Source: a virus
Taxonomy: Duplodnaviria; Heunggongvirae; Uroviricota; Caudoviricetes
Direction: 5' to 3' (one strand)
Virus record (IMG/VR): IMGVR_UViG_2778261085_000006
Coordinates: 1 to 15,295 of that record
Length of the DNA stretch: 15,295 nt
Below are positions 177-15,295 of this stretch, in pieces. The position numbers and the translations under genes were made by a program. Position 1 is the first letter of the stretch, and each line of letters opens with the position of its first letter. A model generated the notes under the pieces. It made no database searches, was not told where the DNA came from, and saw only the letters and a list, made by a program, of their open reading frames with translations.

Positions 177-707
177 TTATTCTTCTTCATTGGTATTAGG
201 CGTCGGCATTTGTCGTGACAGACCAGATGCTCTGCCCATTATGAAAACGGATGCCAATCCTATCAGATCAACAGTAATCAGCGTTCCAGCAAAAACAGTA
301 TTACCTCTCCAGGCAAAGACGGTTGCTATCAGCAAAATTAAAAGCGTTATCGAGTAAGCCATCCATTGACCACGCCTGTCTTTTTTTATTGTTCCCGTGA
401 CCGTTGTTTTCTGCATTTCATGACGATGAGCCTGCTCTTTCTCACTTCTTGCCATTATCCGCTCAGCAGCACCTTCAACTATATCATCGTATTCACGTAG
501 CATTGATGGTGGAGGAAGCGGACCACGGAAATAGGTTTGACTTACTATGGCTCTAAATTGAGGTCGCTCGAGGAGCCGTTCAAGAACATTTGGATTTTCA
601 ACCAGCTCCCCTTCTATCTCTTTAGCCAGCTGTTCTGAACTCTTACATGAATCGTTATCGTGCAGTGGCAAGCTGGCGTTTAAGTTTTCTTGCTCTGAGT
701 CTTGCAT
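177..707 (-). CDS. DUF2335-like membrane protein (soluble N-terminal domain, two predicted C-terminal TM helices)
   Basis: 176-aa ORF; GAGG SD 4 nt before ATG at 707; hydrophobic stretches WMAYSITLLILLIATVFAW and TVFAGTLITVDLIGLASVFIMG; motif FRGPLPPPSMLREYDDIV...EKEQAHRHEMQK resembles the DUF2335 family from memory. Confidence 0.75.
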   Translation of the reverse strand: MQDSEQENLNASLPLHDNDSCKSSEQLAKEIEGELVENPNVLERLLERPQFRAIVSQTYFRGPLPPPSMLREYDDIVEGAAERIMARSEKEQAHRHEMQKTTVTGTIKKDRRGQWMAYSITLLILLIATVFAWRGNTVFAGTLITVDLIGLASVFIMGRASGLSRQMPTPNTNEEE

Positions 708-870
708 ATGGCCTCATACTTGTCCGTAAGTCATCGCCTACAGCCTGGAAATCCGAACGTAAAGCATCAGCGTCAGATTTATGAACAACCAGTGCTGTAT
801 AATCAGTAGCAGGTATCAGGTCTATGATGCTACCTGCGGCGCGCATGATTCTGCGAGTTGAGCGCAACAT
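655..870 (-). CDS. Hypothetical 71-aa protein with Arg-rich C-terminal tail; overlaps the start of the DUF2335-like gene by 53 nt in another frame
   Basis: ATG at 870 preceded by AGGAGGT SD with 5-nt spacer; 216-nt ORF; first gene after the tR'-like terminator. Confidence 0.6.
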   Translation of the reverse strand: MLRSTRRIMRAAGSIIDLIPATDYTALVVHKSDADALRSDFQAVGDDLRTSMRPYARLRARKLKRQLATAR

Positions 871-1065
871 ACCGTACCTCCTTACATAGTTAACATCTTA
901 TAGATCACCTTTGGGGTAATCTTAGAATGAGCCATGCAAGCTGTACAGAATTATTTTATAGCGCACGACTTTCAAATTGGCGCACATAAAAGCAATTCCC
1001 CGTAAAAACACAGCAAACGAAGAAAGCAAACTATGCTGGAATCAACTATGGACTTCACTGTTTTT

Positions 1066-1093
1066 CCGGCACAAAAACCCGCTCGTCGGCGGG
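1066..1093 (-). terminator. tR'-like Rho-independent terminator downstream of the late promoter
   Basis: Minus strand reads CCCGCC-gacga-GCGGG followed by TTTTTGTG; about 40 nt downstream of the AACGAT pause element. Confidence 0.65.
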
Positions 1094-1130
1094 TTGTAAA
1101 AATTATTTTAACGTCAGGCATAATACGCCC

Positions 1131-2380: not shown

Positions 2381-3430
2381 TTATCCGAGTACGCCAGTTG
2401 CAAAGGCGTGATCAAGAAAACGAAAAATTAAATCAACCTGAGAACCATGCTTTTCTTCGAACGCCTGCGGATCTGCATGAAGTTCATTGTGATGTTCCCG
2501 GCACAGCGGCAACGTAAAAATATCGTGAGCTTTTGTCCCCATTCCGCCCTGACCGTGACCAATCAGGTGATGGGGATCGTCTGCTGGCTTACCACAACAC
2601 GTACACGGCTGTTTCTTTACCCAGCGCGTGTATTTCTCATTCACCCAGCGGCGACGTTTAGGCCGCTTCATGAATGATTCCGGTGACTCCGGATCAACGG
2701 CAATGCTGACCACCGTCTTTTCCTGTGGTGCGTTCTGTTGCTGGTGGGCGTGAGGCAACGGCGCAAAATTTTTTGTGCGCTGCTTCAGTATGCTGGTGGC
2801 GGTCCGCTCTCCCTGTACGATGTCGCTTTCGCGGTACACCGAGCGGATTTTTTCCGCACGCAACCCCAGAGAACGACGTAATACTGACTCCGGTAGCGCG
2901 TCCGCTACCTGATTGCAGACCGCCCACCAGGATAATTCAGCCAGCGACAATTCCCGCTCCTGCGTGCCATTCATTGCGTGACGGATGACGTCAATCATCC
3001 ATGCTGACAGGTTTTGATGAGCAAGCTGCCCGAGTGATTCGGAAGTCTGGTCACGCAGCTGGTTGTCGCAGTGCCAGCACAACACCATCGCGCCGGTACC
3101 GTAACGATGTATGACGGTTTCACTGTGGTGATAGTCACCATGAGGCCACTGGCAGGATTTAACGTGGCGCAACAGCCAGTCAGAGAGTGCGCCAGCACCA
3201 CCAGCGGCACGAATCACACGCTCATCGCTGAAAAATGGCAGTAATGATTTATCTTCCGCCAGCGGCTGGCGAACGGCAGGAACAACTCCGGACGGCAAAC
3301 ATCGCATGCTTTTCGGTTCCGGTTCCACCAGCACTCGAGGGTTATGAAATACCTGCATGGATTCACGGCCCGGCTTAAGGACCACCAGCCCAAGTTCCGG
3401 TACCGGAACAGGTCGAAGTAATACCCGCAC
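2381..3430 (-). CDS. DUF968 (YdfU-like) prophage protein with C-terminal HNH-like nuclease motif
   Basis: 349-aa ORF, GTG start 1 nt after the stop of the upstream ORF with GGAGGT SD; C-terminal CTCCGK...DPHHLIGHG...LPLCREHHNELH resembles an HNH/zinc-finger nuclease signature; same position as ydfU in Qin. Confidence 0.8.
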   Translation of the reverse strand: MRVLLRPVPVPELGLVVLKPGRESMQVFHNPRVLVEPEPKSMRCLPSGVVPAVRQPLAEDKSLLPFFSDERVIRAAGGAGALSDWLLRHVKSCQWPHGDYHHSETVIHRYGTGAMVLCWHCDNQLRDQTSESLGQLAHQNLSAWMIDVIRHAMNGTQERELSLAELSWWAVCNQVADALPESVLRRSLGLRAEKIRSVYRESDIVQGERTATSILKQRTKNFAPLPHAHQQQNAPQEKTVVSIAVDPESPESFMKRPKRRRWVNEKYTRWVKKQPCTCCGKPADDPHHLIGHGQGGMGTKAHDIFTLPLCREHHNELHADPQAFEEKHGSQVDLIFRFLDHAFATGVLG

Positions 3431-3431
3431 G

Positions 3432-3704
3432 TTACCTCCAGATGCGTTGCTGGAATGTGCGGGATGAACGCGGTGGGCGTTCAGAATAAGGGAGCCTGAC
3501 TGAAATTATCCAGTGTCGGAAGTCAGGACTGAGGTCTTTCTGAAACTCATACCCACGTCTGCGGTAGTTCTGAATCAGCCATTCGGCCTGTTCTTCAGTG
3601 CATGGATCATGCTGGAACCAGTCGGTTTTAAATGCGCGTGAACGCCGCCATTGCCTGCTGGCAGGGGCGGTATCAGAATTGTTAAGTTTTGTGTAATGCA
3701 CCAC
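3432..3704 (-). CDS. Hypothetical 90-aa protein, tightly coupled to the DUF968 gene
   Basis: GTG start with GGGGA SD about 8 nt upstream; stop 1 nt before the DUF968 GTG; no recognised family. Confidence 0.45.
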   Translation of the reverse strand: MVHYTKLNNSDTAPASRQWRRSRAFKTDWFQHDPCTEEQAEWLIQNYRRRGYEFQKDLSPDFRHWIISVRLPYSERPPRSSRTFQQRIWR

Positions 3705-3764
3705 TACTATCCCCGTAATGGTGCGACAGATGTCAGTTGTTCAGGCTGACTTAACCAGTATAAT

Positions 3765-3959
3765 TTAGTCTTCTTTAATACAGAAGTGGCTAACAGAATC
3801 CATGTGCGCTTCTTTACTGATCAAAATGGCATCAGGTGGTAGTGGTATTACAACAAAGTCGCCATTCTCAAAAGTTATCACTTCATAACTACCAGGAACA
3901 GAAAGCGTGGCAATTAATTCCTTATCGTTCATAACCAAAATCCCATGAACTTTAAACAC
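3765..3959 (-). CDS. Hypothetical small protein (about 55 aa if started at ATG 3932, 64 aa from GTG 3959)
   Basis: AT-rich small ORF between the hok terminator and the 90-aa ORF; start site ambiguous and SD weak. Confidence 0.3.
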   Translation of the reverse strand: MFKVHGILVMNDKELIATLSVPGSYEVITFENGDFVVIPLPPDAILISKEAHMDSVSHFCIKED

Positions 3960-4091
3960 ATCCCCTTAAGGGGGCCATCCCTCTTCTCCCTGCGCGCTAA
4001 CTAAGTAATATGATTCTATTTACCCCAAACGGCCCCTCAAGAACCGCACCCAATGGAGTACACAAAAAGCTAATCAACTACGCCGCACAAT

Positions 4092-4112
4092 AAAAAAACC
4101 CGCCGAAGCGGG
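4092..4112 (-). terminator. Rho-independent terminator downstream of hok
   Basis: Plus strand AAAAAAA-CCCGC-cgaa-GCGGG, i.e. on the minus strand a 5-bp GC stem followed by a U7 run. Confidence 0.7.
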
Positions 4113-4186
4113 TTAAGTGCGGGTGCGTTGAGGATGCCTGACACATCATAGGTGGCGGGGGATAAAAATCCCCCGCCAGGTCACCC

Positions 4187-4342
4187 TTACTCCTCAGATT
4201 CGTAAGCTGTGAAGACAGTGACCTCCGTCTGGCCGGTTCGGATTCGTACCTCGCAGAGGTCTTTCCTCGTTACCAGTGCCGTCACTATGACGGTTAAACA
4301 GATGACGATCAGGGCGATTAACATCGCCTTTTGCTGCTTCAT
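4187..4342 (-). CDS. hokD: Hok/Gef-family type I toxin (HokD/RelF-like small membrane toxin)
   Basis: 51 aa MKQQKAMLIALIVICLTVIVTALVTRKDLCEVRIRTGQTEVTVFTAYESEE, near-identical to HokD/RelF as recalled; AAGGAG SD 9 nt upstream; perfect 9-bp hairpin 10 nt after the stop. Confidence 0.9.
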   Translation of the reverse strand: MKQQKAMLIALIVICLTVIVTALVTRKDLCEVRIRTGQTEVTVFTAYESEE

Positions 4343-4680
4343 AGCCAGCTTCTCCTTGCCTTTCGGCACGTAAGAGGCTAACCTACATGTGTAAAGCATG
4401 AAATTGGCCTCAGATTAATGTTAAGCGTCTTGCCGGACGCGTAATGTTAACTGGGGCTTTTCTCTGTCTGCCTTACAGTGGCATGCCCGAGGCAGACAGC
4501 CTCAAGCACCCGCAACAATCTTACCGACACCGATAAGAAAACGCTATTTTTTATTGCCAGAACCTTCTGCCCAGGCTAATGTATCCGCGTCAGAACGGCG
4601 CAATGCGCTCGCCTGAGATACGTTTACTTGTCATTGGTGGCAACAGATAACGGCAATTGTTATTTCTGTTTGTTTCCTTC

Positions 4681-4714
4681 AAAAACCCCGGACCGTCAAT
4701 CCGGGGTTTTTGTT
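4681..4714. terminator. Bidirectional Rho-independent terminator separating the DUF4406 gene from the hok locus
   Basis: AAAAA-CCCCGGA-ccgtcaa-TCCGGGG-TTTTTGTTT: 7-bp stem flanked by an A-run and a T-run. Confidence 0.7.
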
Positions 4715-4993
4715 TGCTATCCCCAGCGGCAAATCGAATACACCACCACCGCCATTGCAATTCCTGCCGTTGTGAATGCTTCAGGCCAAGTCATCGCAAA
4801 ACATCCTTCACACTTACCAGCCCGTTCTGTTTCAGATACGCCATCGCCTGTTAAGCCTCACTCGCCAGTATTTATGTTCACACGATCAGGGATAAATATG
4901 CCTTTACTCTTAAATGTCGGATTTCAATATTCGAGATTTCTTGCCAACGCCGCGCACGGTTCTATCTTATTACCATTAATTTGGCACTTTGAC

Positions 4994-5293
4994 TCACTCA
5001 CTGTTATCCTCCTGGAAAATAACCGCATGCCCCAGCTTCTCCGCCAGTGCCAGTTCTGCCTTAGCACCTGCTGACCGCTGCCAGCCTTTCAGCATGTAAA
5101 TCGCATCCACGCAGCGTATCATCGCCATGCAAATATCCATGTAGTGTGGCTGTGTCAGCCCATCCGGAAGTACTGCCGGGTTTAAGACTGTATGCCCTTC
5201 ACGTTTCAGTTCCTCTTCCGCCTTGTGAAACGCCTCACGGTTGAAATTTTTATATCCCGTCATTGGGCCGGCAATATAAACTCTCACCCTCAC
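4994..5293 (-). CDS. DUF4406 (nucleoside 2-deoxyribosyltransferase-like) prophage protein
   Basis: N-terminal VYIAGPMTG motif typical of DUF4406; GTG start at 5293 or 5287 (GGAG SD before 5287); 4-nt overlap with upstream gene. Confidence 0.75.
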   Translation of the reverse strand: MRVRVYIAGPMTGYKNFNREAFHKAEEELKREGHTVLNPAVLPDGLTQPHYMDICMAMIRCVDAIYMLKGWQRSAGAKAELALAEKLGHAVIFQEDNSE

Positions 5294-5544
5294 TCCTGAA
5301 CTCTCCTGTCGAAATAAACGTAGTTATTCACTGTGCGCAACGGCATTCCAAATTTTATGGCGATTTCTCTCCTGGAGACGCCACGCTGATGCAGTTTTCG
5401 CGCCAGCTCAATATCGCTCTGAAGATATTTTGCTGACTGGTGAAAATCACCACGCAGAATCAGACTTATTCCCATCTCCCGGGCTTTCGTCCTGACCGCC
5501 GCCTCACTACGACCAATCAGACTGCCGATGCTTTTTACCTTCAT
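5290..5544 (-). CDS. Small HTH DNA-binding protein (84 aa)
   Basis: ATG at 5544 inside a longer GTG-initiated frame; C-terminal RGVSRREIAIKFGMPLRTVNNYV looks like a helix-turn-helix; SD weak. Confidence 0.55.
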   Translation of the reverse strand: MKVKSIGSLIGRSEAAVRTKAREMGISLILRGDFHQSAKYLQSDIELARKLHQRGVSRREIAIKFGMPLRTVNNYVYFDRRVQE

Positions 5545-5600
5545 TGTTCCCGCGCACTGCCGAAGAATAAGGATTTCAGCCCGCACCCAGCCACGCCATC

Positions 5601-6362
5601 TCACTTCACATCCTCTCCGGAACAATTCATCTGCCGTATAATATCCCGGTGCTTGTTCAGCTCCTGCAGCGCGGCGCAGACACGTTCCCACTTCCGGATA
5701 TGACTTTTTGCCCGGCGCAGTTCACGGTTTGCCATATGTAGCGATGGCAGCATTACATAGTCGGTATGTTTTTCGGTGAACGATGGCAGTGACCGCACAA
5801 TATCCGCCACCGTTTCTGTTTTAATTTCTTCCTGTGTTGCCGCTTCCTGTACCGGTAATGCAACCCCCGCTGGCTGAGGAAAGGCTTTACCATCAGTTTC
5901 CGCTACCGATGCGGCTTTCAGTTCTGCTGGTAAATTCTCGCCTGGCATGCAGTAACGAAATTTACCGTTCTGATTAACGCGTGCCAGCCGCCCTGTTGAG
6001 GTTACTACCGCCAGCGTGGAAGCAACCTTGCGAATGCTGACACCGAACTTACCCGCCAGTTCCTCACACGTTTTAGCCCCCTCCTTGCCGATAAACTCAA
6101 TCATCATGTCAGCGGTAACTTTTTGTTCGCCCACCCCGGTTAGCACATCCGGTGCTTCAGATTGTACTGGCCGCTCTTCGGTTACCCCGGATTCACCTTC
6201 ACCAGCCAGAAACCAGGTATGACCTGTTTTATCAACGACGCCATTTCTTTTGAGTTCCCACAGCTCGTTCAGCACTTCTTCACGACTGATATCAAGTCGC
6301 GCGGCCAGTTCCACCGACGTGGCTTTTCCCATTGCGTTCAGTGCGTCAAAAACAGTCTCCAT
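5601..6362 (-). CDS. Prophage protein with N-terminal winged-helix-like domain (DUF1627-like)
   Basis: ATG at 6362 with GGGAGG SD 8 nt upstream; [43 protein letters not shown] resembles DUF1627 from memory. Confidence 0.6.
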
Positions 6363-6384
6363 TAAAATTTCCTCCCGGTAAAAA

Positions 6385-7130
6385 TTACTTCTCAATTCCT
6401 GGCTGGATGACATTCGTGCGCCAGCTCTCCCAGTTAAAATTCACCCAGCGACCACCGTTCATGGTCATGCGGTCCATTACGCGCTCGCCAAGCAGCGTAT
6501 TCATCGCCGTATGGTTCAGGTTCGTCAGCATCCCGACGCTGTGCATCGAGGCCGTTCTGCGATCGACTATCTGGTTCAGAGTGACCTGTTCGTTACGCGT
6601 ATCCCGCTGCATACCGATTTCATCCAGGATAAGCAGGTCAACCTCACACAACCCCTGCAAAAATTTTTGCCCGAGTTTTTGTTGTCGTAGTTGCCGTGTA
6701 ACGCCAGCATCACATCCGCCACCGTCACCACAATCATGCTGCGACCTTTCGCCAGAAGATGGTTGCCGATGGCTGCCGCCAGGTGATTTTTTCCGGTACC
6801 CGGCTTACCGCTGAACACAAAATTTGTGCACCAGGTCATCAGCTCGTCCGCAATGGACTTCGCCTGGCTGAGTGCATGACGCTGTCCGTCGATCTGCACC
6901 AGGTAATTCGCAAACGAACATTTCTGGTGCAACGGCTGGATACCGGAACGATTCAGGAATTTTTCCACCCGTAACTGGAGATTCTGGCGGTTAATTTCCT
7001 CACTACGCTTTCGCCCTTCCGCAAGCTGCCACCCCCGCCACTCGTCCACTGTCCGGTACGGCGCGGTTACATGCTGCGGGGCCAGCTTACGGATACGCTC
7101 AAGAACACCACCTGCCGCAATATTTTTCAT
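6385..7130 (-). pseudogene. DnaC-like replicative helicase loader, disrupted by a single-base frameshift in an A5T5 homopolymer near 6659..6668
   Basis: ORF 6576..7130 carries DnaC N-terminus and Walker A (FSGKPGTGKNHLAAAIG) but ends in nonsense; overlapping ORF 6385..6660 in another frame carries the DnaC C-terminus (DLLILDEIG...NQIVDRR...LGERVMDRM); frames join across GGCAAAAATTTTTGCAG. Confidence 0.8.
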
Positions 7131-7136
7131 AACCCG

Positions 7137-8246
7137 TTACCCCCTGAATCCCGGCGGAATTTCGGTGTCCGGTTCAGAAATGTGATTCACACAACGCTGG
7201 TTGTTCGTGCCGCTTACCGGAATCAACCAGGGGTTTTCAAAATTCCGGTCCGGTCCAAAAAACGTCGTCGCTCGCTGAACAAATTCCGTTCCCGTTTTCC
7301 CGGTAGCCGCCAGGTATCTTGCATAACGCCTCACACCATCCATCATGGCCTCTGGTGGCACCCCCTCGCGTAATCTGGCCTTCCAGGCACTGAATGCGGA
7401 TTTCTTCGGGTTTGCCCCGGCACGCAACGGGTATTCCCGCCAGACCTGTTCGAACACATCCGGATAATCCACCCGTCCCACAGGCTGCCCGGTGTTTTCC
7501 GGGACTACCCGATCGGCTTCCCGCTGAATGGCGGAATCGGCTTCAGGCTGCTGCAGTTGGTGTGATTGTTCCGGCCTTGCGGTCATCGCCTGCTGCACAG
7601 CTCCCGAATCGGCTTTCAGCGCATACGCTGAATCGGCTTCCGGTGTCGTGCCTGCTGGCTGACCAGAATTTACGGTCTGAACATCCCCTGCCTGGTTCAT
7701 GGTGTTTTTTTCGCCATGAACCATAGTGTTTTTGTCCTGTTCCTGTTCTTTCTCCTGCTCCTGTTCTTGGCTTCGAAGCCCCTTAAAAGCCCCTTCGAAG
7801 CCCCTTACAGAATTTCGGCTATTATTCCGCCTCACATCCAGATGGAAATCCGTTTTATATCTGTCGTAAAACGCTGACAGAAAAGCGTTTTCAGGTAATG
7901 ATGCATACTCATTCCTGACACCTGCACAACGGTTATCGCCAGGCTTCAACGTTTCCCCAACCTGCCAGGCTGCCATTTCATGGACCCAGACCATCTCTGC
8001 ATCATGGTCATAGCTACAAAAACCAGCTTCAACAGCCCTTTTAAGCCCCTTTGAAGCCCCTTCCAGACCAAGCCCGGTTTCATGAGCAAGGTATAAAACT
8101 GGCAGGTAATACAAACCCAGCATATTTGCGTGAGGGGATGTCATCAGGTAAAAAGCAACAACTTGCGCTTCTGCACCCGCCTTTCTAAGTTCTCTCCCCG
8201 TTTCTCCCAGCCAGAATCGCGGAGAAACTTTTGCGTAATCACGCAT
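7137..8246 (-). CDS. Phage replication initiator (O-like) with internal repeat/linker region
   Basis: 370 aa from ATG 8246 (GAGGT SD); immediately upstream of the DnaC-like gene; central low-complexity QEQEQEKEQEQ plus PEADSA repeats; C-terminal YPDVFEQVWREYP...AWKARLREGV resembles phage replication-protein C-terminal domains. Confidence 0.7.
   Translation of the reverse strand: MRDYAKVSPRFWLGETGRELRKAGAEAQVVAFYLMTSPHANMLGLYYLPVLYLAHETGLGLEGASKGLKRAVEAGFCSYDHDAEMVWVHEMAAWQVGETLKPGDNRCAGVRNEYASLPENAFLSAFYDRYKTDFHLDVRRNNSRNSVRGFEGAFKGLRSQEQEQEKEQEQDKNTMVHGEKNTMNQAGDVQTVNSGQPAGTTPEADSAYALKADSGAVQQAMTARPEQSHQLQQPEADSAIQREADRVVPENTGQPVGRVDYPDVFEQVWREYPLRAGANPKKSAFSAWKARLREGVPPEAMMDGVRRYARYLAATGKTGTEFVQRATTFFGPDRNFENPWLIPVSGTNNQRCVNHISEPDTEIPPGFRG
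7511..7639. repeat. Four iteron-like copies of GAATCGGCTT inside the O-like gene (candidate origin-binding sites)
   Basis: Copies begin near 7511, 7534, 7606 and 7630 (spacing about 23, 72, 24 bp); followed by a T-rich tract at 7695..7770. Confidence 0.55.
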
Positions 8247-8324
8247 GGCTACCTCATCTGGTGCCGAAGCTTCCTCCGGATATAATCTGTGGTTCCCAAT
8301 CGACAGAACCAGAGGAGGTTCGAC

Positions 8325-8780
8325 ATGTATTTTTTGAAAAGCCTTTATCAGGCTCATGTATTAAATGTTGCAGCAACAAACCGCTGGTGTAACAGCCCCG
8401 AAATGCTCCCGGATTACAGAGCCTGGCTGCGCGCAGAAACATACCTTCGTCTCGACATATTGATTAGCGAACTTCAAAAAGAGACTGCATCCATTCATAA
8501 CCTTCAGGGTATCGACGCTGTTCGCATTCTGGTATCGCGCCATAGTGCTCTCTCAATAATTGAAGTGCGTCATCTCTCTTTTTCTGAACTGATTTTCTTG
8601 CTTCAACCAGCTCTGGAATCAGCGAATATCCCACCGGAAGTGATCCAATACCCACCTCATGTTGACGAGCAGTTACAAGATGTGCCATACAACCAGCGTG
8701 CTGGATTGACTCCCTGCTCAGAGGCTGAATGGGATCACTCTCTGCTGAAGAAATACCAAGATTTGTATAATCCTCAATAA
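8325..8780 (+). CDS. Hypothetical antisense-oriented protein (151 aa) with near-consensus SD
   Basis: GAGGAGGT at 8312..8319, 5-nt spacer, ATG at 8325; overlaps the minus-strand ORF 8464..8973 by 317 nt, so at most one is likely fully real. Confidence 0.3.
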   Translation: MYFLKSLYQAHVLNVAATNRWCNSPEMLPDYRAWLRAETYLRLDILISELQKETASIHNLQGIDAVRILVSRHSALSIIEVRHLSFSELIFLLQPALESANIPPEVIQYPPHVDEQLQDVPYNQRAGLTPCSEAEWDHSLLKKYQDLYNPQ

Positions 8781-8973
8781 GCCCGGCACACGCTTCTGCA
8801 TCAGCCAGCTTTATTCTGGTTTCCTTGCGCTGTTCTCTGGCTGACAAACGCCAGAGCAGCGCATTAACTTTATGTATCAACCACTCTGCCAGCTCCACAT
8901 CAGATAAACCGCCACGCCAGATGTGCGGACTGTTTTCGTAAACGCTCAGTGTCAATTTTTTGTCATTACTCAT
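8464..8973 (-). CDS. Hypothetical protein (169 aa from ATG 8973) between the YdaT-like and O-like genes
   Basis: Same strand as the surrounding operon; E. coli-like codon choice (CTG, CGT, GAA frequent); SD weak; conflicts with the antisense ORF 8325..8780. Confidence 0.45.
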   Translation of the reverse strand: MSNDKKLTLSVYENSPHIWRGGLSDVELAEWLIHKVNALLWRLSAREQRKETRIKLADAEACAGLIEDYTNLGISSAESDPIQPLSRESIQHAGCMAHLVTARQHEVGIGSLPVGYSLIPELVEARKSVQKKRDDALQLLREHYGAIPECEQRRYPEGYEWMQSLFEVR

Positions 8974-8986
8974 ATTTATTACCCAA

Positions 8987-9412
8987 TTAATGCACAGCCA
9001 GAGTGTTTCCTGCCGGGCCACCACGATTCATCTGATCGAACAGAACTATCGCTGATGCAACTAAATCATCGATATCTTTCACCAGCCGTTCCTGCGTCTC
9101 CACCAGCTCCCGAAAATAAGCGGAACTGTGGCTGCGCATTCGGGCCACCAGCGGAGGCGGCATCGCTTTTTCGATAGCTGGTAACAACGCCTGAATTTTT
9201 TTAACCGCGTCAGGGGTATCTTTCTCCAGCCAGCGGAAAATTTTCTGGGTATTACGGCCCAGGGCTTCCGGATGGCTGTCGTCGAACAGTTCAGGAAACG
9301 TCAGACCCAACTCGAAATAAGCCCGGGTTATTTCAGCTGCCGGAACTTTTTCACCGTCCGGATATGCCCAGGCATTCATCGCCATGCGGATGTGTTCATG
9401 CTTGATTTTCAT
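8987..9412 (-). CDS. YdaT-like (CII-position) protein
   Basis: 141 aa; GGAG SD 8 nt upstream; 17-nt overlap with the upstream Cro-like gene; same position and size as ydaT in Rac. Confidence 0.65.
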   Translation of the reverse strand: MKIKHEHIRMAMNAWAYPDGEKVPAAEITRAYFELGLTFPELFDDSHPEALGRNTQKIFRWLEKDTPDAVKKIQALLPAIEKAMPPPLVARMRSHSSAYFRELVETQERLVKDIDDLVASAIVLFDQMNRGGPAGNTLAVH

Positions 9413-9671
9413 GAATCAACTCCGGTGTATTTGATGTGTTAGCCTTATCTCCATCAGGCACCCCGTCAGTTGGATTCGGGTATAAATCTGGTCGCAATTC
9501 ATGAGGAGTCACCCCAGTTGCAATATAAATTTGACGAACCCGTTCTCCCGTCGGTACTCGACCATTGTATTCATTTGCCCATTTGTGTATTTGAGACGGC
9601 CAAGCCCCTATTGCACGCCCTAGCGGACGAATACCACCAGCAATCTTTATTGCTTTGTCCAATGCTGTCAT
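9396..9671 (-). CDS. Cro-like HTH regulator (YdaS/DicC position)
   Basis: 91 aa; GGAGG SD 4 nt before ATG; divergent from the repressor gene; N-terminus MTALDKAIKIAGGIRPLGRAIG resembles YdaS-type Cro-like proteins. Confidence 0.7.
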   Translation of the reverse strand: MTALDKAIKIAGGIRPLGRAIGAWPSQIHKWANEYNGRVPTGERVRQIYIATGVTPHELRPDLYPNPTDGVPDGDKANTSNTPELIHENQA

Positions 9672-9693
9672 ACAACCTCCAATTCAACTAACC

Positions 9694-9770
9694 TTAACAA
9701 TTGTTCACTTAAAACGAACATAAGTCAACACCTCGAGGAATTGTTAGTGTTCACTGAACGGTTATAATTG
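9694..9770. promoter_or_regulatory. Divergent immunity promoter/operator region with two operator sites of form TTGTT(C/A)-N9-GAAC
   Basis: Operators at 9701..9721 and 9741..9761; plus-strand promoter -35 TTGTTA (9741..9746) and -10 TATAAT (9764..9769), 6 nt from the repressor ATG; minus-strand promoter -35 TTGACT and -10 AACAAT overlapping operator 1. Confidence 0.6.
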
Positions 9771-9774
9771 CTAA

Positions 9775-10164
9775 ATGGACATGAGAAAAAAGCAATACGA
9801 CACCCCGCTAGCAGAAAGGTTAGATACGATCTCGCAACAGCATCATTTAAGTGGTTCAGATTTAGCGCGTATCGCTGGTGTAGGTCGTTCATCAGTCAAC
9901 GCATGGAAAAAAAGAGGAACAATCAGTAAAGATTCCGCAGCCAAAATTGCGGAAGCTACAAACGTTTCCCTTTCTTGGCTACTGACAGGAAAAGAAGAGA
10001 CAAATAGAGAGGCACTTGATGATGACGAGAAGGCCCTGCTTGATGTTTACAGAAGCCTGCCACCTGTAGAACGTAGAAATATGCTGGCAGCTTTTCAAAT
10101 GCGACTTCAAAAACTGACCGAATTTTACTCAGAATACGTCGACCCAATAACAAGACAAAAATAA
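9775..10164 (+). CDS. DicA-like XRE-family HTH repressor (short CI analogue without peptidase domain)
   Basis: 129 aa; N-terminal HTH (SGSDLARIAGVGRSSVNAWKKRG); C-terminal ALLDVYRSLPPVERRNMLAAF resembles the DicA C-terminal region; divergent to the Cro-like gene. Confidence 0.8.
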   Translation: MDMRKKQYDTPLAERLDTISQQHHLSGSDLARIAGVGRSSVNAWKKRGTISKDSAAKIAEATNVSLSWLLTGKEETNREALDDDEKALLDVYRSLPPVERRNMLAAFQMRLQKLTEFYSEYVDPITRQK

Positions 10165-10185
10165 TTCTTTATTTTACAGAATCAT

Positions 10186-10209
10186 ACCGCCGCAAGGCGG
10201 TTTTTTTTT
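10186..10209 (+). terminator. Rho-independent terminator after the repressor gene
   Basis: ACCGCC-gcaa-GGCGGT followed by a T9 run. Confidence 0.8.
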
Positions 10210-10230
10210 GCTTTTCGCGCACTCATTATG

Positions 10231-10259
10231 TTGACATTTGTTCACCTTGGAAGAACAAT
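10231..10259 (+). promoter_or_regulatory. Promoter of the leftward (dicB-operon-like) transcript with a third repressor operator
   Basis: -35 TTGACA (10231..10236), 17-nt spacer, -10 AACAAT (10254..10259); operator TTGTTC-N9-GAACAA at 10238..10258 matches the two sites in the divergent region. Confidence 0.55.
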
Positions 10260-10333
10260 GTATTCCATCAAAGCACAACGGTGCGACAGGTCTTAGTTCC
10301 GCTACCCCGGCGTTAAGGGGAAATGAGGTCAGC

Positions 10334-10486
10334 ATGGATACTATCGATCTTGGCAACAGCGAATCTCTGGTATGTGGCGTGTTCCCCAACCAGGACGGTA
10401 CGTTCACCGCGATGACGTATACCAAAAGCAAAACGTTTAAAACCGAAACTGGCGCGCGTCGCTGGTTAGCCAGAAACACTGACTGA
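10334..10486 (+). CDS. YdfA-like small protein (50 aa)
   Basis: GAGGT SD 4 nt before ATG at 10334; MDTIDLGNSESLVCGVFPNQDGTFTAMTYTKSKTFK resembles Qin YdfA as recalled; first gene after the DicA-repressed promoter. Confidence 0.65.
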   Translation: MDTIDLGNSESLVCGVFPNQDGTFTAMTYTKSKTFKTETGARRWLARNTD

Positions 10487-10497
10487 TGAGGTTGACG

Positions 10498-11136
10498 ATG
10501 GAATTTAAAGATTTACCAATATCAATACAGGAAATGGCCGCTGATGTGATTCGCTCGCAACTGGCGCGGAACCCAATGATATTAGTAGATAAAGTGTTCA
10601 TCATAAATTTATCAAATCATGTCCGCAATTCTTTTACCGGACTGTATTCAGATTCGTTCACAAACAATCATTGTGTAGAAAATAAAGCAAAGCCCATTGC
10701 AGAAACGATAACGCAAAACATCAATACGAAACAAACCGAAGAAGAAATTGACCAGTTTACCCGAGATACTGGCTTAAAATGCAGGAAAGAAAAATCGCCA
10801 TATGCGGGGAATATGTTTGTTTATGACAACCTTATCCGAATTCGTGGCGAAATTCCGACTGAATACCTAGCAAGAATTCACCGGGCATTACTTAAAAATC
10901 TGGAAACGGAAGTATTTGATGGCAATACCAACGGCTCCTTCGTGGTGTCAACTCTCGCAAAAGAGTGGGATACAGATAATCGCTGGAATGTTGCCACATG
11001 GTTATTCAGCAACAAAGCTGCTGCCCTGGAAGCTGCGGCCTGTATTTGCGACCTGCTAAGGACAGACCGCAAATACAACCTGGATGTGTATAGCTATATT
11101 TATGCTGAACACTATCCGCTATGGATTAACTGGTAA
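10498..11136 (+). CDS. Hypothetical 212-aa soluble protein, AT-rich, unknown family (candidate accessory/defence moron)
   Basis: GAGGT SD 5 nt before ATG at 10498; 1-nt TGATG overlap between the ydfA-like stop and an upstream in-frame ATG; GC visibly lower than flanking genes (about 38% in the first 60 nt counted by hand); no TM segments or recognisable motifs. Confidence 0.7.
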   Translation: MEFKDLPISIQEMAADVIRSQLARNPMILVDKVFIINLSNHVRNSFTGLYSDSFTNNHCVENKAKPIAETITQNINTKQTEEEIDQFTRDTGLKCRKEKSPYAGNMFVYDNLIRIRGEIPTEYLARIHRALLKNLETEVFDGNTNGSFVVSTLAKEWDTDNRWNVATWLFSNKAAALEAAACICDLLRTDRKYNLDVYSYIYAEHYPLWINW

Positions 11137-11346
11137 TTACAAAGCTGCACCAGCAGGGCCACGGCGACCAGCGCCACGATTGTAATCAATGATGCCATTA
11201 TAAAGCGCATTATTTAATTTATCGTCGAATGCCGATTCTGTGAGCCCTAGCACTGAATGAGTTTTTAATAACCCTGATTGCCTGAGTTGATTAACCAGGC
11301 ATTCAATCTGTTTTTCAATAATCGGATGTATTGGCTTGTTTGGCAT
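11137..11346 (-). CDS. Hypothetical 70-aa protein, convergent with the 212-aa gene
   Basis: GGAGGA SD 5 nt before ATG at 11346; its stop codon directly abuts the stop of the 212-aa gene (TAATTA); Gly/Arg/Ala-rich C-terminal tail. Confidence 0.45.
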   Translation of the reverse strand: MPNKPIHPIIEKQIECLVNQLRQSGLLKTHSVLGLTESAFDDKLNNALYNGIIDYNRGAGRRGPAGAAL

Positions 11347-11669
11347 TTTATCCTCCATTGAAGTTACTGGTTGAGAATGGAGACCACACGTGACAGCGTG
11401 TTGTCGTGCGCCGGACACGGATAAGAATCCGGCACTGACAGTTTACTGAAAGAATATATCCCTGAAAAGTCAGGGCATAACTCGAAAGCGCACGGCGGAG
11501 GTGTCTTTTCCTTAGAAGGCTTGTCGTTAGATTTCTTCGACCGTGCGCTTCCGGTTGTGGCACTCCGCGAAATGGCGCGGCGGTAAGTATGGCGGGGTTA
11601 TCCTTACCCCATTAGTGGCACCGGGTTGTCAGGTTGACCATACGCTTAAGTGACATCCCCGCTGCAACA

Positions 11670-11735
11670 ACCCATGTTGATTACCTTTTGGCGGGTATCC
11701 GTTTTTTGTTTTCCCTTGTGATACCCGCCCTTTTT
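11670..11735 (+). ncRNA. DicF-like small RNA candidate (processed sRNA ending in an intrinsic terminator)
   Basis: 10-bp perfect stem GGCGGGTATC / GATACCCGCC with a U-rich 20-nt loop, followed by CTTTTT; 5' flank UUUUGGCGGGUAUC resembles DicF UUUGGCGGUAUC as recalled; sits in a non-coding stretch of the DicA-repressed operon. Confidence 0.4.
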
Positions 11736-12001
11736 AAAGTGAATTTTGTGATGCGGTGAATGCGGCTAAGCGCACGCGGAACAGTTAAAAAGGACAGTTG
11801 ACATTCGTATTGGTTCTTATGGGTGGGTTATCTGTATCCGGCGTTAATTGTTAACTGGTTAACGTCACCTGGAGGCACCAGGCATCGCATCAACAAAATT
11901 CACTTCAGTGATGAAAGGTGAGAGAAAATGTTGAATGTAGCTATTGAAAACCAGAACGGGTGGAATTATAGTGCACCTGCACCTCATAAAACGGGTGCCG
12001 G

Positions 12002-12212
12002 GATTTGCACCCCGATGATCACTAGAGCGCATAACCGCGCCAAAGCGGTTTTTTTATGCGTAAAGCGCAGCCACATTCAGATTATGGTGGGGCGTATGGG
12101 GCCGTTTTCGGGCGGGCCGGATTCTCTAGTGACCGGTAGTGCAAACCCTGTACGTCTCACCACCCATGAGATTTGCACCTACGGTGGTGAGTTTACCAAC
12201 TTATCACTAGAG
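12002..12212. repeat. Three copies of a bipartite motif TTTGCAC-N-TCACTAGAG (direct, inverted, direct) upstream of the Rha gene
   Basis: Copy 1 at 12004..12027, inverted copy CTCTAGTGA...GTGCAAA at 12124..12146, copy 3 at 12172..12212 with a longer internal spacer. Confidence 0.5.
12034..12055 (+). terminator. Possible intrinsic terminator/attenuator in the Rha leader
   Basis: ACCGC-gccaaa-GCGGT followed by T7; stem is only 5 bp. Confidence 0.4.
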
Positions 12213-12221
12213 GCTGCCATC

Positions 12222-12776
12222 ATGGCTACTATCCCTACCCTGTCTCACCCTGACGTAACCATCGAAAACGGTCGCGCTATCACTACGTCTGTTGCGATCG
12301 CAGAGTTCTTTGGCAAACGACACGACAACGTGTTACGTGCCATCGCAAACATTGAATGCTCAGAAAAATTTAACGCCCTCAATTTTGAGGACGTAACGTA
12401 CACCGACGCCAAAGGCGAAAAACGTCCAATGTACCAAATCACCAAAAACGGCTTCGTTTTCCTGGTGATGGGCTTCACTGGCAAAAAAGCCGCTGCATTC
12501 AAAGAGGCCTACATTGCTGAGTTCGACCGCATGGAGGCAGAGCTGCGTCAGAATAACACCCCACCAACTGACAAAATAATTCCTGGCGATGGTCGCACTC
12601 TGGTTGTTCGATTCGACGAACACGGCAATATCAAATTCACCGAAACCGTTCCTGATGGTGCAATGGTCTGTACTCTGGATACCTTCCAGTTTTATCTGGA
12701 GAAACAGGGATGGACACTTGTAAACCGGAGCGCAATTAGAAACATGACTGTCGAACAATTGCTGCGTATTAAATAG
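12222..12776 (+). CDS. Rha-family phage regulatory protein (antirepressor-like)
   Basis: N-terminal AIAEFFGKRHDNVLRAIANIECSEKFNALNFE...MYQITKNGFVFLVMGFTGKKAAAFKEAYIAEFDRME matches the Rha N-terminal domain; the in-frame extension back to 11928 contains a terminator and repeats, so was not taken as coding. Confidence 0.75.
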   Translation: MATIPTLSHPDVTIENGRAITTSVAIAEFFGKRHDNVLRAIANIECSEKFNALNFEDVTYTDAKGEKRPMYQITKNGFVFLVMGFTGKKAAAFKEAYIAEFDRMEAELRQNNTPPTDKIIPGDGRTLVVRFDEHGNIKFTETVPDGAMVCTLDTFQFYLEKQGWTLVNRSAIRNMTVEQLLRIK

Positions 12777-12821
12777 TTTTCTGGAATTTACTTCATATGA
12801 CTAATTATTATGGAGATAATT

Positions 12822-13043
12822 ATGATTGCTCATCACTTCGGAACTGATGAAATACCACGTCAGTGTGTGACTCCAGGCGATTATGTTCTTCATGAGGGCA
12901 GGACATATATTGCATCGGCAAACAATATTAAAAAGCGAAAACTTTATATTCGTAGCCTGACCACAAAAACATGCATAACTGGCTGCATGGTTAAAGTTTT
13001 CCTCGGTCGTGATGGATTACCTGTAAAGGCTGAGTCATGGTGA
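12822..13043 (+). CDS. Small 73-aa protein at the position and size of Rac KilR (identity unverified)
   Basis: GGAG SD 6 nt before ATG at 12822; lies between the Rha and RecE-like genes. Confidence 0.5.
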
Positions 13044-13295
13044 TAGACAGGAAAATAAAATGCGCTTACCTCCTTTGCAATAAAGGATTTGAAGAAAGCA
13101 AAAGTATTAAAAACCACTTCATTTCATGCGTGGCGTTATCCAAACAACGGAAATGAAAAAAAAATATTGTAGTGAAATCTGTGCCGAAAAAGACCAGATG
13201 GCACATGAACTTTAATTAACTGACTGAACGAAACTGAATTTATGCCTGCAATGGCAGGGATTCGCTCAGCCTTAAAATAGTTATGAGGTTTATCA

Positions 13296-15295
13296 ATGAG
13301 TATTGATAAAGAAGAATTTGCACTATATTGCGAAGCAAAAAATGACAAAGTCAGAAAACGCCTGGGAATTAAAGGCGGTTTTTACTGGACTACAGCAAAA
13401 AAATTATCTGTTGCAATCTCCCGCTGCATTACCGCAATGGATGACAACGATTATGATGAAGACGACTTTAAAAAACCGGTCCGAGTCCATTTACCCGTTG
13501 TGAATGACCTTCCACCGGAAGGCGTGTTTGATACGGAATTCTGCAACCGATACGAAAAAGGCGGGGAAGATGGCATCACAATGGTATTTATCGCCCCATC
13601 TCCCTCTGCGCAGGACAACCAGGTCAGCACTGACAATACCAATGTTAATGGCGAAGACATGACGGAGATTGAGGAGAATATGCTACTCCCGATTTCCGGT
13701 CAGGAACTGCCCATTCGCTGGCTTGCTCAACACGGCAGCGAAAAACCGGTAACGCACGTTTCACGCGACGAACTCCAGGCATTACACATTGCACGGGCTG
13801 AAGAACTACCAGCTGTTACTGCCCTGGCTGTTTCCCACAAAACCAGCCTGCTCGACCCGCTGGAAATTCGCGATCTCTACAAACTGGTTCGTGACACTGA
13901 CAACGTTTTCCCTAATCCTGGTAATTCAGACCTGGGACTGATGACTGCTTTTTTCGAAGCATACCTGGGCGCTGACTACACTGATCGTGGTCTGCTTACA
14001 AAAGAGTGGATGAAGGGGAATCGTGTTTCACGTATCACCCGCACGGCTTCCGGTGCAAATGCCGGTGGCGGGAACAAAACCGATCGCAATCCGAATTTAG
14101 TACACACCTTCGATACGCTGGATGTGGAGATTGCAGCAGCCACACTTCCGATGGATTTTAATATTTATGAAATTCCGGGCAGCGTTTATCGTCGCGCAAA
14201 AGAAATCGTCCTGAAAAGAGAAAGTCCGTTCAAAGAATGGTCCGCAGCACTTCGCGCAACCCCGGGTATTCTGGATTATTCCCGCGCCGCTATTTTTGCA
14301 CTTATCCGGAGCGCATACCCTGAGTTTTATCATTACCCGGGACGCCTTCAGAGGTATATCAATGCCTATTTAACGGAGACTGATCACGAGAACCCTACCG
14401 AGGAAACTCTCACTGCTGCACGACATACACCGGAAAAAGATATCCTGGAAGAAGTTAACCGCGAACTGGCCGCTGAACGCGAAACAGAAGAAGAAAAAAA
14501 TAATGAGGAAAAATCACAACCGTCTGACGCAATGGCAGATGAACAGGCAACGACTGAAGCAATGGGACAGGATACAACTGAATATCGCCAGGACACTCAA
14601 TCGCTGGATACTCAGGCACAGATAAATCCGGTTAATCAGGTAAAAGTTACCGCTGACGAAGTAAACAAAATTATGCAGGCAGCCAATATCAACCAGCCTG
14701 ATGCCGACAAAATACTGGCAGTCCATCGCGGTGAATTCGTTGACGGAATTAGCGACCCGAATGATCCGAAATGGGTTAAGGGGATTGAAACCCGCGATTC
14801 TGTGAACCAGAACCTGCCAGAATCGGAACAAAACAGCCAAAATGCGTTACAAAACGAGCCAGAAACGAAACAGCCTGAACCAGAAGAGCAACAAGAACCG
14901 GAAAAAGTCTGCACCGCCTGCGGTCAGACCGGCGGCGGCAACTGTCCTGACTGTGGCGCGGTGATGGGCGACGCAACATACAAGGAAACATTCGATGAAG
15001 AGAATCAGGTTGAAGTTCAGGAAAATGATCCGGAGGAAATGGAAGGCGCTGAACATCCACACAAGGAGAATGCTGGCAGCGCTCAGGACCACGCCAGCGA
15101 TAATGAAACTGGCGAGGCGGCAGATCACTCAATTAAGGTGAACGGTCATCACGAAATCACATCCACCAGCAGGACGTGTGACCATCTAATGATCGACCTC
15201 GAAACCATGGGAAAAAACCCTGATGCCCCGATTATCTCAATAGGTGCAATATTTTTCGATCCGCAAACCGGAGATATGGGACCGGAATTTAGTAA
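13296..15295 (+). CDS. Large RecE/exodeoxyribonuclease VIII-like protein, partial (continues past window end); has a zinc ribbon and the start of a DEDD-type 3'-5' exonuclease domain
   Basis: GAGGT SD 6 nt before ATG at 13296; at least 666 codons with no in-frame stop (checked codon by codon); [18 protein letters not shown] zinc ribbon; [26 protein letters not shown] matches exonuclease motif I; not in the ORF track because it lacks a stop in the window. Confidence 0.8.

Follow-up and report, generated by a model that had tools for sequence, protein, structure and literature searches.

Decay into pseudogenes is an ordinary fate of prophage replication genes, and it is usually through point inactivation of such genes that lambdoid prophages become trapped in the chromosome. 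E. coli DnaC (PDB 6QEL/6QEM) has an N-terminal DnaB-binding region, a Walker A motif (GKPGTGKN), a Walker B motif (DLLxxDEIG) and a VDRR segment, all of which recur in the locus described here. Nearer relatives of this locus are the YdaV-type proteins (PRK12377, NCBIfam NF009043) of Rac-like and other lambdoid prophages (E. coli WP_042631009.1 and others), which are 248 aa long and are encoded between an O-like gene and a DUF1627 gene. E. coli commonly harbours defective lambdoid prophages, some lambdoid prophages carry DnaC-type loaders, and complementation among defective lambdoid prophages has been documented (PMC2669165). The prophage pool of E. coli O157 Sakai (Asadulghani et al. 2009, PMC2669165), for instance, includes the lambdoid prophages Sp4, Sp10 and Sp12 with DnaC-type loaders, and has many point and indel defects in essential functions that can be complemented by co-resident prophages. 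The locus studied here is an ordinary prophage pseudogene of this known family. Very probably, a genuine and inherited 1-bp deletion has inactivated the DnaC-type loader gene of a Rac-like lambdoid E. coli prophage, and the gene is now decaying.

The window, i.e. the whole stretch of 15,295 nucleotides that was analysed, contains only the early region of this lambdoid, Rac-like E. coli prophage. The genes are ordered as Q antiterminator, RusA, DUF968, hok/sok, DUF4406, HTH protein, DUF1627, DnaC-like, O-like initiator, YdaT, YdaS and CI repressor, followed by a Rha/Ash regulator, KilR and exonuclease VIII. This order is shared by relatives in E. coli genomes, and the replication module within the series is cro(YdaS)-cII(YdaT)-O-like-DnaC-like-DUF1627. 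The DnaC-like gene occupies 6385..7130 on the minus strand, and its neighbours are those of the YdaV-type relatives. The O-like replication-initiator or replisome-organiser gene (7137..8246, minus strand) ends at 7137, 6 nt before the loader ATG at 7130, so that the loader lies in the lambdoid early-right position. Its product is 369 aa as called, or 406 aa if translation starts at the first ATG (8357). It strongly matched phrog_1701 ('DnaD-like helicase loader') and phrog_3729 ('replication initiation protein'), and E. coli relatives have a 'phage O protein family' gene at the same position; no Pfam or NCBIfam match was obtained. An acidic low-complexity linker rich in Q and E (QEQEQEKEQEQDK) is also part of the protein. 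On the downstream side of the loader, the DUF1627 (YdaW-like) gene at 5601..6362 (minus strand) is intact, with a match to Pfam PF07789 at 2e-90.

Several other elements were observed in the window. The hok/sok type I toxin-antitoxin module is complete (4187..4511, minus strand), with an Rfam sok antitoxin RNA (115 bits, 4340..4511) located upstream of a HOK_GEF ORF of 70 aa (4187..4399). The Rfam families isrK (68.6 bits) and C4 antisense RNA (78 bits) were found at 11979..12055 and 12080..12167, inside the 5' part of a 282-aa Rha/Ash-type regulator ORF (11928..12776, plus strand) that matches phrog_995 over its full length. This layout, in which the RNAs overlap the annotated start of the coding sequence, looks like the c4-antirepressor arrangement of P1/P7 immI, here within a lambdoid early region. 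Between the YdaT-like and O-like genes, an ORF in the sense of the operon (8464..9024, minus strand) matches phrog_8304 over its full length (E=2e-119). The public call at this spot is an antisense ORF of 151 aa (8325..8780, plus strand) that has no PHROG or Pfam match, and it is probably a wrong-strand gene call. The insert between ydaT and O is missing from E. coli TUM9757, where the two genes abut.

No uninterrupted reading frame of the DnaC-like gene spans both Walker motifs. Walker A (GKPGTGKN, 6786..6809, minus strand) lies in frame 0, in an ORF of 184 aa (6576..7130, minus strand) that runs to a stop at 6576. Homology to DnaC extends over residues 1-154 of this ORF, including the DnaB-binding N-domain and Walker A; the remaining 30 aa (residues 155-184) are an out-of-frame tail (KNFCRGCVRLTCLSWMKSVCSGIRVTNRSL). 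Walker B (DLLILDEIG, 6613..6639, minus strand) lies apart from Walker A in the -1 frame; both motifs were located by alignment to DnaC. The C-terminal homologous segment in this frame (6385..6666, minus strand) runs from KFLQGLCEVDLLILDEIG to a terminal GIEK and stop, and includes the sensor and the Arg region besides Walker B. Public gene calls split the locus into two genes of 184 aa and 75 aa. The Pfam profile IstB_IS21 was matched by the N-terminal ORF on positions 63-140 and by the C-terminal piece on positions 150-216. Because the two pieces fall on successive stretches of one profile, their homology in two frames is far above chance. The junction reads CTCGGGCAAAAATTTTTGCAGGGG in the sense of the gene, and its A5T5 tract is located at 6659..6668 on the plus strand. 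Hence, the ORFs and the junction sequence bear out the statement of the first-pass annotation that DnaC-homologous parts in two frames are joined across this tract.

The same annotation had proposed that one added base restores a continuous DnaC-like protein of about 248 aa, which agrees with our profile searches. With the missing base added, and only then, the protein scored 474.2 bits against NF009043 (cutoff 389) and covered positions 1-248 of 248. The restored protein also matched phrog_50 ('DnaC-like helicase loader', E=1e-76), and its residues 2-241 aligned with E. coli DnaC (6QEL, E=2e-73). Its score of 304.6 bits against NF005931, the equivalog model of the host DnaC, was below the cutoff of 357, which indicates that it is a prophage paralogue of YdaV type rather than the host gene. 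Its amino-acid identity to the nearest copy in a complete genome is 94.8%. Residues 2-56 aligned with the DnaB-binding N-domain of DnaC (6KZA, E=3.7e-5) as well as with 6QEL, and binding of DnaB is therefore predicted from these alignments.

The base that was lost could be placed exactly by comparison with orthologues in related prophages, as the first-pass annotation had recommended. An alignment with four intact E. coli genes (88-94.6% identical) gave a length of 746 bp for the locus versus 747 bp for the relatives. All four intact genes contain the A5T5 tract and read GGCGAAAAATTTTTGCAG. The G of codon 155 is present in these four of four E. coli genes, in 44 of the 44 IMG/VR contigs that match the flanks, and in a sister prophage from IMG/VR (IMGVR_UViG_2737471845_000026, hereafter L020). 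All of these read GGCGAAAAATTTTTG, versus GGCAAAAATTTTTG in the deletion form. The lengths of the A5 and T5 runs are the same in the window, the four E. coli genes, the 44 IMG/VR loci and L020; the missing base is a lone G between C and A, in codon 155 (GAA, Glu) between 6668 and 6669 on the minus strand, where the plus strand lacks a C. Thus, the indel had been assigned wrongly to the inside of the homopolymer: A5T5 is unchanged, and an isolated G in front of the A-run was lost. For the same reason, it was mis-specified to expect that reads with an A6 or T6 run would reveal an intact gene, because the intact state is G followed by A5T5.

An ancestor with six A's (GGC AAA AAA), and hence a deletion within the homopolymer, was also considered. 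Residue 155 is Glu (E155, GAA) in 102 of 103 full-length homologues and Lys in none. This near-invariance implies that the ancestral codon was GAA, and the A6 ancestor was ruled out.

The same missing base was found in at least 11 independent public assemblies, including NCBI assemblies, Logan re-assemblies of SRA runs and ENA metagenomes. The carriers encode five product variants and have two different immunity regions. An identical 184-aa product is encoded in GCA_002486915.1, GCA_002521485.1, SRR9913895 and SRR3987492, the last two being Logan assemblies; GCA_002486915.1, counted among the carriers, is the assembly that holds the window itself (contig NNXD01000078.1). Four variant products that share the out-of-frame tail are encoded in ERZ15610157 (on a contig of 97.9 kb), ERR7450907, ERR3329136, ERR5014434, SRR19912668, ERZ28575768 and ERZ27287286, and the variant contig of ERR5014434 was seen in seven samples. 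A second group of carriers is 0.3% divergent in the replication region, and has a 162-aa HTH repressor in place of the 127-aa CI. In one carrier (L009), a prophage of the same type adjoins potC with an adjacent integrase. The intact version of the allele was not encountered: exact look-up of three restored 248-aa sequences among approximately 15 billion proteins gave no hit, and none of the 5,426 complete E. coli genomes has a gene with more than 94.6% identity. Likewise, no match to the 60-nt junction was obtained by megablast among complete E. coli genomes, a result that speaks for complete genomes only. Exact-pattern scans of the GTDB species-representative genomes found the junction neither with nor without the G; the allele family is absent from that set, and the scans are therefore uninformative.

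One carrier (L015; ENA ERZ27287286 k141_508211, 383..1125) has extra lesions, namely G160E, L185Q and a 3-bp deletion near the 3' end. L185Q abolishes the frame-0 stop and extends the product to 187 aa. If they are not assembly errors, these lesions suggest ongoing decay.

These carriers bear directly on the possibility that the real gene is intact, and that the frameshift is a sequencing or assembly error at or near A5T5. With 15,295 bp, the contig that makes up the window (NNXD01000078.1) is a short draft, and some sequencing platforms are known to produce indel errors beside homopolymers. However, at least 11 independent assemblies share the identical deletion while differing by substitutions and immunity regions, the A5 and T5 runs have the same lengths as in intact genes with an isolated G as the lost base, and no further coding indel was found relative to L020 over approximately 11.7 kb. 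Recurrence of one deletion across independent data sets and genetic backgrounds implies that it is not an artefact, and we consider an error extremely unlikely. In other words, the five variants and two immunity regions among independently assembled carriers exclude the sequencing error that the first-pass annotation had listed as an option. Its first option, a true inactivating mutation in a prophage, is favoured by the independent carriers, the intact sister and a pattern of relaxed selection.

The sister prophage L020 shares 99.1% identity with the window over 2767..9420 and 99.86% over 10266..15295. Its loader gene is intact (248 aa), with 97% nucleotide identity to the copy in the window. 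Over the approximately 11.7 kb compared, the two sequences differ by two intergenic indels (at 4978 and 13156) and by the lost G, which is the only coding indel. The immunity region of L020 (window 9420..10266) is swapped relative to the window. Furthermore, mismatches between the two are concentrated in short patches at 2957-3095, at 4867-4937 and, in the 5' half of the DnaC-like gene, at 6833-7098. Patchy mismatches together with an immunity swap are the typical pattern of mosaic recombination in lambdoid phages.

The lost G was the sole imperfection of a quasi-palindrome, GCGAAAAATTTTTGC. Its deletion extended the perfect palindrome from 10 bp to 14 bp, giving GCAAAAATTTTTGC at 6657..6670. 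Among all single-base deletions that the restored gene could undergo (747), the observed one ranks first by the length of the palindrome gained. In E. coli, mutations that perfect a quasi-palindrome are a known class, generated by template switching during replication (PMC7202029). Slippage cannot remove a base that is not repeated, and a template switch therefore fits better. We give about even chances to an origin by quasi-palindrome template switching, as opposed to homopolymer slippage, an argument that is drawn from the sequence and made post hoc. All carriers belong to one allele lineage. A protein search with the out-of-frame tail for independent deletions in other alleles gave no hits, but its sensitivity was poor, as it missed known carriers too.

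A role of the palindrome as terminator or promoter element was rejected, as there is no G+C-rich stem and a scan gave no sites at the junction. Rfam likewise gave no family match at the junction. The longest perfect palindrome in the window is located elsewhere: GTTCCGGTACCGGAAC, with 16 bp, lies at 3394..3409 inside the DUF968 gene.

Changes among the carriers were polarised with the intact relatives as outgroup. Seven non-synonymous changes arose after the frameshift (P24L, W34G, R51L in the lineage of the window, F104C, G160E, L161V and L185Q), together with two synonymous changes and one 3-bp deletion. Three of the residues altered in carriers (W34, F104 and L185) show no variation among the homologues (103 of 103). 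The ratio of non-synonymous to synonymous changes was 7:2 after the frameshift versus approximately 12:26 between intact genes (Fisher p=0.02), counts that are small and include four of nine substitutions resting on single metagenome contigs, which may be errors. With only multiply-supported changes included, the ratio was 3:1 (p=0.12). Mostly non-synonymous changes, some at invariant residues, imply relaxed selection and hence a pseudogene; the signal is small, and as read from these sequences it is consistent with relaxed constraint on both halves of the gene.

The C-terminal frame is nevertheless open in all carriers, and the junction could in principle allow recoding. The deletion brought the slippery heptamer A_AAU_UUU (6660..6666, minus strand), which fits X_XXY_YYZ, into frame 0. 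A -1 slip on this heptamer enters the C-terminal frame exactly and yields a protein of 248 aa that has GKNFLQ instead of GEKFLQ (EK to KN) and is otherwise the same. The deletion might thus be a compensatory 'savior indel', with -1 ribosomal frameshifting on A_AAU_UUU producing enough 248-aa loader for replication from a gene that is alive or down-tuned. Motifs of the type H_HH.U_UU.Y are among the efficient ones in E. coli, albeit only with stimulators (PMC4066793). A precedent is the thymidine kinase of HSV, in which a savior indel is combined with low-level frameshifting (PMC5009743). In addition, the allele persists in two prophage backgrounds with its C-terminal frame open. Against this, no downstream stimulatory structure was detected in five window sizes compared with shuffles (z = +0.82, +0.60, +0.24, +0.58 and -0.90), and no SD-like element (GGAG or AGGA) is present within 20 nt upstream of the heptamer. 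Without stimulators, such motifs yield only 2-10 times a background of 0.055% (PMC4066793). The two-frame layout is limited to one allele and is not conserved among homologues, all other relatives having single-frame genes of 246-250 aa. Moreover, the changes W34G, F104C and L185Q at invariant residues and the 3-bp deletion affect both halves, as expected without selection. We therefore regard a replication-sufficient savior indel as very unlikely.

A trickle of full-length protein by slippage is physically likely, and any rescue by frameshifting is probably very small. That a savior-type indel keeps the loader almost off, while a trickle suffices for occasional replication or is tuned against toxicity, has only a slim chance of being correct, slightly below that of the broader savior reading. 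If true, it would account for the survival of the allele, with its C-terminal frame still open, across different immunity regions. Of the slippage-dependent expression that the first-pass annotation had mentioned as a less likely option, the mechanistic possibility stands by virtue of the in-frame A_AAU_UUU; it finds no backing in a stimulator, in conservation or in purifying selection.

Transcriptional slippage on A5 or T5 would be another way to restore the frame in some of the mRNAs, given the two adjacent 5-nt homopolymers at the junction. Productive slippage in bacteria uses much longer A/T runs, however, of roughly nine or more. Runs of 5 nt are abundant in normal genes, and intact homologues keep A5T5 without a frame problem. 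The likelihood of this mechanism is close to nil.

The preferred reading thus remains a pseudogene created by a genuine deletion. Codon 155 (GAA), which lost its G, lies downstream of Walker A and upstream of Walker B, and translation thus yields a product of 184 aa. This product retains the DnaB-binding N-domain and Walker A (the P-loop), and is without Walker B and all that follows, including the sensor and the arginine residues. Judging from the structure and function of E. coli DnaC, a protein that lacks these elements should be unable to act as an AAA+ loader. The allele has since been inherited, gathering mostly non-synonymous changes. From the biology of DnaC we infer that the prophage could not load DnaB by its own loader, and would be replication-defective unless host DnaC or the loader of another prophage stands in. 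Against this reading, the presence of the allele in prophages with different immunity regions means that it has persisted and possibly spread, as would be compatible with a loader that is dispensable or weakly rescued.

A truncated product may also have retained or gained a function, for example by sequestering host DnaB, or the two halves may act as a split protein. The alignment of the N-terminal 56 residues with the DnaB-binding domain of DnaC (6KZA, E=4e-5) and the 184-aa ORF, intact in all carriers, fit the former idea. Changes in the N-terminal part have nonetheless hit invariant (W34G, F104C) or conserved (P24L, R51L) residues. As to a split protein, inspection of the sequence revealed no strong ribosome-binding site before the internal TTG or ATG of the C-terminal part, and reconstitution of this AAA+ fold from chains that carry Walker A and Walker B separately is not known. 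Either function is very unlikely, and inactivation by the deletion is the reading that we retain.

The wider importance of this result is small, as it adds one more case of point inactivation in a prophage replication gene. For annotation, the locus should be listed as a single pseudogene in place of the two called genes (184 aa and 75 aa). Two lessons concern method. A frameshift adjacent to a homopolymer does not have to stem from an error in the run, as here the relatives reveal the loss of a lone G and the perfecting of a quasi-palindrome. Furthermore, independent assemblies can decide between mutation and error without read pile-ups.

Compared with known systems, the locus combines familiar elements. 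As in the quasi-palindrome template-switch mutations described by Ripley (1982) and by the Lovett laboratory (PMC7202029), an imperfect inverted repeat was made perfect, although the palindrome in the window differs from that class in being short and A/T-rich and in having no spacer. As with the G-run savior indel of HSV thymidine kinase (Atkins et al. 2016, PMC5009743), the main frame was inactivated and a shift-prone site was left; in contrast to that case, the window has no stimulator, and a frameshift product or selection for it is hypothetical. The gene shares its motifs with E. coli DnaC but is prophage-borne and frameshifted. It equals the YdaV-type relatives in restored length and differs from them in that the G of codon 155 is gone, with Walker A and Walker B in separate frames. 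Finally, whereas the replication genes in the Sakai prophage pool were mostly judged intact (PMC2669165), in the prophage studied here it is the loader itself that is damaged.
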